Shown here in pieces: positions 26,551 to 30,506 of a stretch of 64,000 bases of DNA (positions are counted from its first letter, which is position 1; the number at the start of each line of letters is the position of its first letter). The stretch is from a virus (taxonomy: Duplodnaviria > Caudoviricetes), in IMG/VR virus record IMGVR_UViG_3300034073_003276, one strand, 5' to 3'. The translations under genes were made by a program, and so were the position numbers. A model generated the notes under the pieces. That model was not told the DNA's origin and did no database searches. It saw only the letters and a list, made by a program, of their open reading frames with translations.

Positions 26551-27264
26551 TCATTTATATTTTTCAAGAGAGTACATTCCATTTTTTTCAACAATTGCCG
26601 TACAAGAATCACACCAATCACCACAACACATATACAGAAGTTTGTTAAAGTATCTCACATTACCATGATGAATATGCCCACAGATTACTCCATTATATTT
26701 TTTATCTCTCTGAACACAGAAAGATGAAATATCAGTCTCATAACGATTGATATAGTTTTTACCTCTTACTGTATTCTTAAGAGCATAAACCAAAGAGAAT
26801 CTAAAAAACCTTTCCAGAAATAAACTTAAAGGTGTAATCAGTTCATATCCTTTATTGAACATTAACTGCTTCCAAGAACCAGAAGAATACTCAGAATACT
26901 TATCTCCATGAACACAAAGAAATTTGTTTCCCTTTGAATCTTCATGAACATATTCATCAACCATTCGGAAGTTCTTATGTTTAAAATCACAATACCGACG
27001 AATCTGACCTTCGTGATTTCCAAGAATATAAACGACTTCTGTACCTTTCTTGATTAGATTCATAATCTGATGAACACACTCAGTATGCTCTTTCGTCCAA
27101 CGAGTGTTATATTTTTCCATACAGGCAATATCAATAATATCACCCACTAAAACTAACTTTTTTGTTTTTAGGTTTTTAATGAACTTATAAAATCTTTCCG
27201 TATCACATCTAGGCGTCCCCAAATGAACATCAGAAATGAATACCGTATCGTAAGTCATAATCAA
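26551..27264 (-). CDS. Calcineurin-like metallophosphoesterase, LpxH (UDP-2,3-diacylglucosamine hydrolase)-like
   Basis: FISDVHLG, LVGDIID, GNHE, VHGD, CGHIH motifs. Confidence 0.8.
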   Translation of the reverse strand: MIMTYDTVFISDVHLGTPRCDTERFYKFIKNLKTKKLVLVGDIIDIACMEKYNTRWTKEHTECVHQIMNLIKKGTEVVYILGNHEGQIRRYCDFKHKNFRMVDEYVHEDSKGNKFLCVHGDKYSEYSSGSWKQLMFNKGYELITPLSLFLERFFRFSLVYALKNTVRGKNYINRYETDISSFCVQRDKKYNGVICGHIHHGNVRYFNKLLYMCCGDWCDSCTAIVEKNGMYSLEKYK

Positions 27265-27534: not shown

Positions 27535-27690
27535 TTATTGATGTTTTTGTAGGTATTTAATCATTTCCTGTAAATATTCAGTTGCTTTATCCCAATTTCC
27601 ATTAAATCTTTCTTCTAATTGATTATAAATTTTTTCTGCTCTTTCATATTCAAGTCCAGTTGATTGAATAAATCCTTCTTTAGTAATCAT
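27535..27690 (-). CDS. Small hypothetical protein (51 aa, MITKEGFIQ...)
   Basis: Hand-translated ORF overlapping the stop of the upstream gene. Confidence 0.45.
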   Translation of the reverse strand: MITKEGFIQSTGLEYERAEKIYNQLEERFNGNWDKATEYLQEMIKYLQKHQ

Positions 27691-28294
27691 AATGTTTTAG
27701 TGTTTTTTCTGTAAGGTTAATGATTTCAGTTATAGGCAATTCTACCATATAACACTCTGTATATCCACTATCTGTGGTCTTAAAATTAATTTTATAATTT
27801 TGATATTTTTGATGAATAAACTTTTCAAGGTGATGCACTTGATAATGTATACCTTTCCATATTTTTATTACACTATGAAGTTTATTTTTAGTATGATTTG
27901 ATAGTTTATTAAAACTCCTACCAACTTTATAAACTAATTTTCCATCAAGATAAACAATCACCAAATACAAATAATCAGTATCAAAATATCTTTTACTCCA
28001 AGGATTTTGATAATTGTTTCCTTTTAATTTTTCTCCATATTTTTTAACTCTTTCATCAGTATCTTTTGTTAGACCTTTATTCCAAGATACTTGTGCTCCT
28101 TTTACTCCCTTATTCCAAGGTTCTTTTCCAATCTGCCATTCAGACCAATTCCTAGAAATATTACAAGATTTTATGTGCTTATATACACTCGGTTTTGGAA
28201 CATTAAGTTGTCTTGAAATCTCATAAGAAGAAAGACCAGACAAATACATTTGTTCCCAAAGTTTCTTATCATCATCAGTATATTTCACATTCAT
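27680..28294 (-). mobile_element. Putative free-standing homing endonuclease downstream of psbA (HTH, NUMOD3-like WNKG repeats, C-terminal GIY-YIG/T5orf172-like domain)
   Basis: Likely start is ATG at 28294 (MNVKY...), because the longer track ORF runs through the psbA terminator. Motifs: SSYEISRQLNVPK HTH; two WNKG; YLYLV...YKVGRS...EKFIH...GYTECY. It has its own TATAAATA late promoter. Confidence 0.6.
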
Positions 28295-28316
28295 TGTGGT
28301 CTGCTCATAGTTATTA

Positions 28317-28324
28317 TTATTTAT
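28317..28324 (-). promoter_or_regulatory. T4-type late promoter TATAAATA for the endonuclease gene
   Basis: Exact consensus, directly after the psbA terminator U-tract. Confidence 0.7.
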
Positions 28325-28350
28325 AAAAAAGAGACCTTTGCAGGTCTCCA
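28325..28350 (-). terminator. Rho-independent terminator of psbA
   Basis: GAGACC-TGCAAA-GGTCTC followed by TTTTTT. Confidence 0.8.
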
Positions 28351-28376
28351 TATTATACCATATATTTAGTTTTATA

Positions 28377-29456
28377 TCAACCGATTGAGGGGGCAGTGAG
28401 AGCAACTTCAGTTGTTGAAGCAGTAGCAAGGTCTAAAGGAAAATTATGTGCATTCCTTTCATGCATAACCTCAATACCAAGGTTTGCTCCATTTACCAAA
28501 TCTGCCCAAGTTTTAACTACACGACCTTGACTATCTTGAATGGATTGATTGAAATTAAATCCATTGAGATTAAATGCCATAGTGCTTACTCCAAGGGAAG
28601 TAAACCAAATTCCAATAACAGGGAGAGCAGCAAGGAAGAAGTGAAGTGAACGAGAATTATTAAAAGAAGCATATTGGAAAATAAGACGACCGAAATACCC
28701 GTGTGCAGCACAGATATTATAAGTTTCTTCTTCTTGACCAAACTTATACCCATAGTTTTGAGATTCTTGTTCTGTGGTTTCACGCACCAGGGAGGATGTC
28801 ACCAAAGAACCATGCATTGCTCCAGCAAATGCTCCACCAAAAACACCGATTACGCCCATCATATGGAATGGGTGCATCAGGATATTGTGCTCTGCCTGGA
28901 ACACAAGCATGTAGTTGAACGTACCAGAGATACCCAGAGGCATCGCATCAGAGAAAGAACCTTGACCGAAAGGATAGACCAGGAATACAGCAGAAGCAGC
29001 AGCAACAGGTGCGCTGTAAGCAACACAGATCCAAGGACGCATACCTAGACGGTAAGAGAGTTCCCACTCACGACCCATATAAGCATAAACACCAATGAGG
29101 AAGTGGAAGACAACCAGTTGGAAAGGACCACCGTTGTAAAGCCACTCATCCAGAGAGGCAGCTTCCCAGATTGGGTAAAAGTGCAGTCCAATTGCGTTGG
29201 ACGAAGGAACAACAGCACCAGAGATGATGTTGTTTCCATACATTAGAGAACCAGCAACGGGTTCACGAATACCATCAATGTCCACTGGGGGAGCACCGAT
29301 GAATGCAATGATGAAACAAGTTGTCGCAGCAAGCAGACAAGGAATCATCAGAACACCGAACCACCCCACATAAAGGCGGTTATCGGTTGAAGTAACCCAC
29401 TGGCAAAAAGATTCCCAGGGATTAGTAGAATTGCGTTGTGCAATAGAAGCAGTCAT
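28377..29456 (-). CDS. psbA: Photosystem II D1 protein (359 aa; start MTASIAQR)
   Basis: Unambiguous D1 sequence; Y161, D170, E189, H190, H215, H332, E333, D342 and A344 are present. No intron. Confidence 0.98.
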
Positions 29457-29494: not shown

Positions 29495-29572
29495 CGAATA
29501 CATTATATCCCACACCACCCTCCAGTGTGGGTATGAGAGACGTGCTTTATACACCCATAGGTCTCGGTTAAC
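29495..29572 (-). ncRNA. PhotoRC-II-like structured 5' leader of psbA
   Basis: AACCGAGACC...GTCTCTCATACC-CACAC TGGAGGGTG GTGTG-GGA matches my recollection of the PhotoRC-II motif found upstream of cyanophage psbA; boundaries approximate. Confidence 0.6.
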
Positions 29573-29622
29573 AGGTGTGGACAATGTTAAGAATTATGAG
29601 GAATCCGTAACATTTGTTTACC

Positions 29623-29656
29623 TATTTATCATAACACGCTGACAAATCCCTGTCAA
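29623..29656 (-). promoter_or_regulatory. Combined early and late psbA promoter
   Basis: TTGACA-17 nt-TATGAT with an overlapping ATAAATA late box. Confidence 0.75.
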
Positions 29657-29817
29657 GCCCTGTATTCCTCGATTTTGTCCAGAACCTTGTTGAGATAATG
29701 ATGTGCCAACCATTTTGGATCATATCCAGATTTATTCATCCACTCTTTATCCAATTCGGATTTTATTTTAAGGACTTCACATCTTATAATATCCTTTGTT
29801 AGTTGTCCTCTTGGCAT
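29653..29817 (-). CDS. Small hypothetical protein (54 aa, MPRGQLTKD...)
   Basis: Hand-translated ORF. Confidence 0.5.
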   Translation of the reverse strand: MPRGQLTKDIIRCEVLKIKSELDKEWMNKSGYDPKWLAHHYLNKVLDKIEEYRA

Positions 29818-29902
29818 ATACAAAAAAACTCTGCCTCTTATTTAGAAGCAGAGTAAAGATATATTAAGTGTTATATCAGACAGTTCAGGTATTATTATTT
29901 AG

Positions 29903-30022: not shown

Positions 30023-30269
30023 TTTGTTTCTCCTCGTTTAGTAGTGTTTTGAATAACGATAAATTTGTCTTTTGGTAAAGTACCTGCGATACAGACTTTA
30101 AGTTCGTCATTATTATTCCAGGCACCAGAATCTACTAATTCTTGGAGGGCAAGAGAAAGGTGTCCAAGCATATTAGCACTCATTAATAAGTCTCCAAAAC
30201 TTTTTCAACAGAATAACCTAAAATTACCAAAAAGGCAACACTAGTAATAGTCCAGAGTGCTTCAATCAT
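30019..30269 (-). CDS. Two overlapping micro-ORFs: 30019..30183 (54 aa) and 30183..30269 (28-aa single TM helix)
   Basis: Hand translation; ATGA and TAATG overlaps with the hli genes. Confidence 0.5.
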
Positions 30270-30478
30270 CAGAAGATTCCGAAGAAGAGTTTACCAGTGA
30301 TAGCATAAGAAATGATACCAGCAACAAAGCCGACCATTGCCCAGCGTCCATTCATTTTCTCCGCTTTCTCAGCATAGGGTTCGATACCATAACGCTCAAG
30401 ATCTTCTTTTGTCATATACATTGAGGGCTCTTTGGCAAACATATTCATTTGCCCGAACTCATTTTTAGTTACAGTCAT
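30269..30478 (-). CDS. hli: High-light-inducible protein
   Basis: MTVTKNEFGQMNMFAKEP...AEKMNGRWAMVGFVAGIISYAITG. Confidence 0.92.
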   Translation of the reverse strand: MTVTKNEFGQMNMFAKEPSMYMTKEDLERYGIEPYAEKAEKMNGRWAMVGFVAGIISYAITGKLFFGIF

Positions 30479-30506
30479 TTTTAAATTCATTAAGAATTGT
30501 TACACA

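Follow-up and report, generated by a model that had tools for sequence, protein, structure and literature searches.

A probable multi-piece recombinant psbA and an apparently virus-only D1 lineage in a T4-like cyanophage

D1, the product of psbA, is among the most conserved proteins known, and the F211S herbicide-resistance mutants of cyanobacteria are laboratory mutants of its QB niche. Here we describe the psbA gene (28377..29456, minus strand) found in a 64,000-nucleotide stretch of viral DNA, IMG/VR record IMGVR_UViG_3300034073_003276, referred to below as the window: the gene has 359 codons and a stop, is intact and intron-free, and belongs to Pfam family PF00124. Like the F211S mutants, it carries a change at F211; unlike them, it features a natural combination of four residues (F210, A211, G212 and L278), fixed in a viral D1 lineage. 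We call this lineage "FAG-type" from F210-A211-G212, usually accompanied by L278.

Patchy %G+C and intragenic recombination are established for the psbA genes of Synechococcus myoviruses (Zeidner et al. 2005, as summarized in Sullivan et al. 2006, PMC1484495), where exchange, according to that summary, is mostly among phage alleles. The psbA of the window resembles those mosaics in its G+C patches and its incongruent phylogeny; it differs from them in that one parent appears to be a virus-only, deeply divergent D1, altered at normally invariant residues, and in that it probably consists of at least four pieces, one of which is contiguous with a putatively mobile endonuclease-like gene.

In phage S-PM2, a psbA group I intron and the free-standing endonuclease F-CphI take part in "collaborative homing" (Zeng 2009; Fang 2018, PMC6083498). 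As in S-PM2, an optional endonuclease-type gene lies immediately 3' of the psbA of the window, and three relatives, L006, L007 and L010, have an intron at R334, L007 also having an Endonuclease VII gene (labels such as L003 and L228 denote other psbA-bearing contigs or loci compared with the window). In contrast with S-PM2, the psbA of the window contains no intron, its downstream gene is of another family (helix-turn-helix plus NUMOD3-like plus T5orf172-like, and not Endonuclease VII), and only a 12-residue putative remnant of an Endonuclease VII is kept, within the small reading frame orf51. Free-standing homing endonucleases of phage T4 co-convert flanking markers, as reported for SegG (cited in PMC6083498) and for mobE (PMC2790892). 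The present locus is similar in that a high-identity tract, made up of the endonuclease-like gene and a variable length of psbA, is found in otherwise diverged genomes, in two independent pairs; it is dissimilar in that its endonuclease is putative and the assignment of the nuclease domain is weak.

Mosaic structure of the psbA gene

Most probably, the psbA of the window is a multi-piece recombinant, combining a selected FAG-type lineage with a standard patch; it would encode a remodelled quinone-tail/lipid pocket. The 3' 45% of the gene, and probably its first ~20 codons too, would derive from the rare, AT-rich FAG-type lineage, and codons ~22-196 would be a copy of the common Synechococcus-myovirus allele, acquired when co-infecting phages underwent homologous recombination. 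The unusual residues would be inherited, selected traits of the FAG-type lineage. Recombination within this lineage was probably stimulated by double-strand breaks, owing to the mobile introns and free-standing endonuclease genes present around psbA, and the last ~370 nucleotides (nt) of the gene may have moved recently together with the endonuclease-like gene, as a shared 1.2-kb tract suggests.

Judging by sliding identity, the gene is a patchwork of at least four pieces (these and all other window features described below lie, like psbA itself, on the minus strand). The first piece, nt 1-60 (29397..29456), is near variant-lineage alleles, with 97% identity to L003; over its first 32 residues the protein is the same as in L003 and L007. 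The second, nt ~64-590 (28867..29393), is of the common Synechococcus-myovirus type, with a GC content at third codon positions (GC3) of 0.42-0.48. In 60-nt windows this central patch is 90-100% identical to L163, L166 and L174, and 63-85% identical to FAG-type alleles; its nonsynonymous (dN) and synonymous (dS) divergences are 0.003-0.011 and 0.39-0.61, respectively. The third piece, nt 591-708 (28749..28866), is of the FAG type and carries M200, I203, A209, F210, A211 and G212. It has no close nucleotide relative, no sequence exceeding 87% identity overall; identity to L228 is 93% over nt 589-648 and 70% over nt 649-708.

The fourth piece, nt 709-1077, is continuous with a downstream tract including the intergenic terminator, the endonuclease-like gene and orf51. 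The whole tract (27549..28748, ~1.2 kb) carries C249, L278 and G323 and is 95-100% identical to L228, L229 and L239 in 60-nt bins, mostly 97-100%. Its identity to these three loci is put at 97-99%, while psbA upstream of nt 709 is only 70-93% identical to L228. The last 300 nt of the L228 contig in ENA (L228:2955-3257) do not align with the window and hold an odd open reading frame (ORF), whose terminal peptide resembles a common spurious-assembly sequence; because of this non-aligning end, the point at which the shared tract stops downstream may reflect misassembly of L228.

The boundaries of the central patch were placed by a two-breakpoint maximum chi-square test at nt 63-98 and nt 585-594, with a statistic that was not equalled in any of 200 permutations. 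Trees built from the two segments are incongruent: for nt 97-588 the window falls inside the standard clade (split support 97), whereas for nt 589-1077 it forms one clade with all FAG-type alleles (99/96), with L228 as its sister (100/100). For this 3' segment, grouping of the window with standard alleles is rejected by the approximately unbiased (AU) test (p = 0.0135).

The 3' junction, at nt ~590, falls just past the codons of the most conserved nucleotide stretch of the gene, which by virtue of this conservation is a natural candidate crossover point. The same change from standard to FAG-type sequence, near nt 590/codon 200, is found in the diverged relatives L228, L229, L239, L243 and L245, which are 10-16% different. 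Since identity to other loci is no higher than 70-84% in the flanking phage DNA, the standard patch (dS ~0.4-0.6) and the tract shared with L228 are probably younger than the backbone. On these comparisons it is the standard-type middle that was imported recently, and the unusual C-half looks like the longer resident, at least up to nt 708; this reverses, in part, the framing of a preliminary description of the locus, which had set a canonical N-half against a substituted C-half.

Base composition changes along the gene. The 5' part has a GC content of ~0.48 and the 3' part one of ~0.39; GC3, at 0.41-0.48 up to nt 597, is 0.23-0.28 beyond this point, and two-fold codons are used in an NNC:NNT ratio of 28:15 in the 5' part versus 10:28 in the 3' part (Fisher p = 7e-4), the shift in codon use being abrupt, at codon ~197. 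The AT-rich FAG-type parts match the composition of the phage itself (window GC 0.36). Both the mosaicism and the shift toward an AT-rich C-half claimed in the preliminary description are therefore borne out, the former by identity profiles, breakpoints and separate phylogenies of the two halves, the latter by GC, GC3 and codon ratios alike. The N-half, described there as standard and as having host-like codons, deserves that name over nt ~64-590 but not over nt 1-60, which are close to the variant-lineage allele L003; its codons are better defined as common Synechococcus-myovirus-like, as it is viral contigs that match best (at 90-100% in 60-nt windows) and GC3 amounts to no more than 0.4-0.5.

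Judged by its conserved features, the gene is intact and probably functional. Its product matches the Photo_RC model (PF00124) with an E-value of 5.9e-88, residues 29-329 corresponding to model positions 1-259 of 260. Ligands and key residues are all present, including Y161, D170, E189, H190, H198, H215 and F255, as well as S264, H272, H332, E333, H337, D342 and A344, the last being followed by a 15-residue C-terminal extension; the preservation of manganese ligands, H215 and S264, noted previously, is thus confirmed. For the definition of substitutions, the reference was a set of 46 standard viral D1 sequences, and positions were taken as conserved when at least 95% of them share a residue. 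The window departs from such residues at only 12 positions, all within the C-half, between 200 and 323: L200M, A203I, S209A, L210F, F211A, S212G, V249C, W278L, V281I, A287S, L321V and R323G. The nine listed in the preliminary description are all among them, correctly numbered. Six cluster in helix D, at codons 200-212 (28821..28859). L210-F211-S212 and W278, replaced in the window by F-A-G and L278, are 100% conserved in the 46 standard alleles. An identical D1 protein is recorded on six contigs, ranging from 10 kb to >200 kb (one ENA record was seen); as the same protein recurs on contigs of such different lengths, the variant is not the product of sequencing errors, a possibility which had been raised at the outset.

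The FAG-type D1 lineage

F210, A211 and G212 are found in all nine other full-length FAG-type alleles, and L278 in eight of them. A protein search with the C-half identified metagenomic D1s sharing F210-A211-G212 and L278, sometimes with C249 or G323, and scans with degenerate patterns located the motif on ~10 IMG/VR contigs, two of which of 175-213 kb, and on 13 metagenome contigs. The D1s of T7-like cyanophages (S-TIP37 and a Mediterranean fosmid), which ranked at the top of the same C-half search, proved to be standard LFS/W278 alleles. FAG-type protein clusters have 26 and 60 members, versus 10,187 for the common type.

The FAG type is absent from 512 psbA-carrying phage records, where the best matches are 85-87% identical and, where checked, of the LFS/W278 kind. 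Similarly, the FAG coding pattern was found in none of 401 cyanobacterial genomes sampled across the class; a control LFS pattern was found in 28 out of 41 picocyanobacterial genomes. A 20-nt degenerate pattern for FAGAMHG was too loose, giving chance matches in unrelated bacteria, and a longer one was used for the 401 genomes. Among the cyanobacterial genomes sampled, none showed natural variation at F211, L210 or W278. Within this sampling, the lineage is virus-only, seen only in uncultured viral and metagenomic contigs.

Cluster sizes, composition and substitution rates indicate that this lineage is rare, AT-rich and under strong purifying selection. For the C-half, dN/dS is 0.088/1.40 in the comparison with L003 and 0.023/0.26 in that with L228, and the FAG motif persists among members whose synonymous sites are saturated (dS >1). 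"Pure" members, namely L003, L241, L242, L238, L236 and L235, are divergent along the whole gene, and AT-richness of pure-type psbA was seen in both alleles checked, L003 and L021. The preliminary description had allowed that the substituted residues might be common to a known host or phage D1 clade across the whole gene. This turns out to be half right: they are lineage-wide traits, in members divergent throughout the gene, of a D1 clade which is viral and uncultured, and the odd residues are therefore not special to the mosaic of the window.

A more divergent viral D1 sub-lineage (L020, L021/L236, L022, L025, L237 and L240) features Q187S and H195N together with the FAG motif; it shows many changes in helices A-C (e.g. 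FIANPP, LHLYNLWDAASIDEALYNGWAYQ), the manganese ligands being kept. A search for psbD in the window, as a check for co-variation, found none; two FAG-type contigs having a psbD gene retain, as judged by eye, F38 and Y42 of D2.

In structures of photosystem II (PSII), W278 and L200 surround the tail of a sulfoquinovosyldiacylglycerol (SQDG) at the quinone-binding site "QD", which lies near exchange channel I, ~15 A away from QB (PMC10300377), and F211 contacts the QB tail, contributing to its binding (PMC4030317). L210 can be placed over a pheophytin, since the L210H mutation swaps this pheophytin for a chlorophyll (PMC3888939). Helical periodicity would place residues 200, 203, 210 and 211 together on the side of helix D that faces residues 278/281 of helix E, and the coordinated changes in size (L to F, F to A, S to G and W to L) look like the repacking of one pocket. 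Given this helix D/E face, and the position of the region beside the QB tail and the SQDG tail/"QD" site, the most likely meaning of the substitutions is a remodelled quinone-tail/lipid pocket, rather than an altered water oxidation. A retuned QB site, one of the readings put forward in the preliminary description, would accordingly be reasonable.

A viral lineage which keeps such a coordinated change under purifying selection may be regarded as a natural experiment on the plastoquinone-tail/lipid pocket of PSII, and the FAG-type D1 bears on what phages need from their own D1 during infection. No literature was found on D1 residues 210, 211, 212, 249, 278 and 323 in cyanophages, and a 2026 preprint on phage D1/D2 substitutions makes no mention of these D1 positions.

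The endonuclease-like gene and the mobile introns

Immediately 3' of psbA lies a free-standing gene (27680..28294) encoding 204 amino acids (aa), which matches phrog_681, annotated as "endonuclease", at 3.5e-12. The protein is predicted to consist of an N-terminal helix-turn-helix, WNKG (NUMOD3-like) repeats and a C-terminal T5orf172/GIY-YIG-like region, all signals being weak: the T5orf172 match is below cut-off (0.0068, 17.3 bits versus 20), and Pfam MUG113 is also sub-threshold. LY..YKVG, E and TE motifs are kept among its homologues. A profile search of the PDB with five homologues matched only the N-terminal helix-turn-helix domains.

Homologues of this gene were found directly 3' of psbA in L228, L229, L021/L236, L003 and L230/L231. 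In other phages the slot after psbA holds an Endonuclease VII gene or nothing, so that the endonuclease-like gene is an optional and patchy element. The L003 and L230 loci (L003:6440-7160 and L230:5150-5930) share an endonuclease-like cassette, 83-93% identical and placed directly after psbA in both, whereas their downstream DNA cannot be aligned and their psbA genes are 63-87% identical; the shared tract enters psbA by only ~40 nt. This arrangement is consistent with recent horizontal movement of the cassette. By analogy with described cases, the patchy distribution and the tracts joining gene and flank are the pattern made by free-standing homing endonuclease genes (PMC6083498, PMC2790892).

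Downstream of the endonuclease-like gene, orf51 (27535..27690) shows a C-terminal match to the Endonuclease VII gene of L007 (L007:2250-2678, minus strand): 11 of its last 12 residues coincide with the C-terminus of this F-CphI-like product. In L007 the slot after psbA is occupied by this Endonuclease VII gene (1e-26), of the F-CphI kind, along with the R334 intron. The end of orf51 looks like a remnant left by the displacement of one endonuclease gene by another.

Group I introns interrupt psbA in relatives at no fewer than six sites: after nt 180, 408, 555 and 894, and at nt ~1002 (R334; in L006, L007 and L010) and ~1008. Some contain reading frames, such as the LAGLIDADG gene in L239:2163-2873, the phrog_655 homing endonuclease in L228:546-1395 and, in L244:4532-5341, a 223-aa ORF that matches no family. 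L243 has two introns in one gene (446-673 and 790-1020), and others were located in L234:3081-3308, L006:5672-5914, L007:2835-3074 and L237:1006-1236. Introns near manganese-ligand codons of psbA were seen in L006, L007, L010, L237, L240 and L243. Similarity between alleles often stops exactly at intron insertion sites, as in L228 between nt 408 and nt 409. No Intron_gpI match was found in the window between 25000 and 33000.

The locus suggests how pieces of an auxiliary metabolic gene can be exchanged among phages through the action of mobile introns and free-standing endonuclease genes. Mosaicism of psbA being already established, the advance would become more than incremental only with a demonstrated phenotype or cleavage specificity. 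What seems to be new is the virus-only D1 lineage, its exclusive linkage to a second endonuclease-like family and the density of mobile introns in the relatives. A bolder proposal, which we regard as possible although rather unlikely, is that the FAG-type D1 is a virus-evolved PSII variant with changed plastoquinone/lipid handling, spreading in freshwater/estuarine cyanophages as a passenger of a psbA-targeting homing endonuclease and of dense mobile introns. The remodelled face would then comprise M200, I203, F210, A211, G212, L278 and I281, and its effect might concern QB exchange, the use of electron acceptors or the sensitivity to QB-site inhibitors; a selfish element would in this case drive the spread of a functional photosynthesis allele.

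Alternative explanations and genomic context

Some observations weigh against a recombinant gene with a remodelled pocket. For nt 97-588, placement of the window with FAG-type alleles is not rejected by the AU test (p = 0.195), and the case for the central patch consequently rests on identity profiles, split support and the breakpoint test. Nt 721-1077 are about equally far from pure FAG-type (82-85%) and standard (74-76%) alleles, so that the far 3' end is assigned to its clade mainly by shared residues and by the whole-segment tree. Over nt 1-60 the best standard allele reaches 92%, which makes this the weakest of the piece calls. The pocket proposal combines statements from the literature with helical periodicity. 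The product of the downstream gene does not significantly match any solved nuclease or Pfam nuclease model, and for this reason is called "endonuclease-like". Finally, the contrast between FAG-type and standard loci in the presence of its family after psbA (6 of 15 non-redundant loci versus none of 68; Fisher p = 1.3e-5) is inflated by shared ancestry and corresponds to ~4 independent lineages.

One reading offered in the preliminary description was an endonuclease-immune allele that had been co-converted along with its neighbour. Spelled out, this proposal would mean that the 200-212 cluster (positions 249, 278 and 323 perhaps included) recodes the target of the neighbouring homing endonuclease, to the protection of the genome carrying it, and that the whole C-half entered a standard-type psbA by co-conversion. 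The exclusive linkage of the endonuclease-like family to FAG-type alleles agrees with this proposal, as do the gene-bearing mosaics (the window, L228 and L230/L231), all of which have their FAG-type part nearest the gene, and the recent shared tract, which spans the gene and 370 nt of psbA. Precedents are F-CphI beside the psbA of S-PM2 and the co-conversion from a distant cut reported for SegG (cited in PMC6083498). Co-conversion is plausible for nt 709-1077, and hence for C249, L278 and G323, which fall in the tract shared with L228 at 97-99% identity. The 200-212 cluster, however, lies 70-110 nt upstream of the tract boundary, in older sequence only 70-93% identical to L228, and is present in nine FAG-type loci devoid of the endonuclease-like gene, while the ~40 nt of psbA co-similar between L003 and L230 point to a target near the 3' end or the stop codon. 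Moreover, immunity normally needs silent changes only, whereas the motif is invariant while dS exceeds 1, as expected of selection at the protein level, and the 5' 60 nt are FAG-like as well, so that the standard part looks like an internal patch. As an explanation of the 200-212 cluster, immunity is therefore improbable. A host source, such as an unusual D1 isoform of freshwater picocyanobacteria, is far less probable still, even if phage psbA genes derive from hosts, with two-way exchange inferred (PMC1484495), and the backbone resembles freshwater Synechococcus phages: the FAG coding pattern is missing from all 401 cyanobacterial genomes, in a search whose control pattern works, all named cyanobacterial protein matches that were aligned carry LFS and W278, and a GC3 of 0.23-0.28 fits the phage and not a host.

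Relaxed constraint, by which the C-half would come from a decaying or functionally released copy of D1 and the odd residues would be tolerated damage, could account for a dN of 0.05-0.2 among FAG-type alleles, versus ~0.01 among standard ones, and for a sub-lineage in which even Q187 and H195 are changed. It is nonetheless very improbable, given a dN/dS of 0.06-0.15, the retention of all manganese, iron, chlorophyll and tyrosine ligands and of the PhotoRC-II leader, and the invariance of the FAG motif across deeply diverged members. Next to no weight is given to an assembly chimera, or to sequencing error, across a conserved gene of co-occurring phages. It is true that psbA is a classic site of chimeric joins, that the nt ~590 junction falls in a highly conserved stretch and that the window probably comes from a metagenomic contig; but a chimera would require at least two switches returning to the same backbone, the identical protein occurs on six contigs of 10 kb to >200 kb, relatives 10-16% diverged share the standard-to-FAG transition, and the gene keeps an open frame and a low dN/dS. 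A recombinant psbA, made of FAG-type segments around a standard patch, remains the preferred reading.

The source phage is, by its closest matches, probably a large, ~208-kb freshwater/estuarine T4-like cyanophage: one of the contigs on which the identical D1 protein is recorded measures 208 kb, and for the DNA next to psbA, the closest isolates are the freshwater Synechococcus phages S-SRM01 and S-CRM01. The gene content around psbA is that of an ordinary cyanomyovirus, as judged from predicted functions. On one side lies a gene for a calcineurin-like metallophosphoesterase (26551-27264; 2.7e-12), on the other a small phrog_566 protein (29653-29823; 1.8e-16) and a putative hli-type gene (30269-30490), the latter with a sub-threshold chlorophyll a/b-binding match (E = 6.6e-4). 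A consensus scan detected a terminator-like hairpin 3' of psbA (28330..28349). The psbA leader contains a PhotoRC-II RNA motif (29495..29589; Rfam RF01717, 81 bits, E = 2e-13), which is also found upstream of psbA in the FAG-type and mosaic relatives L228, L006, L007, L239, L244 and L245.

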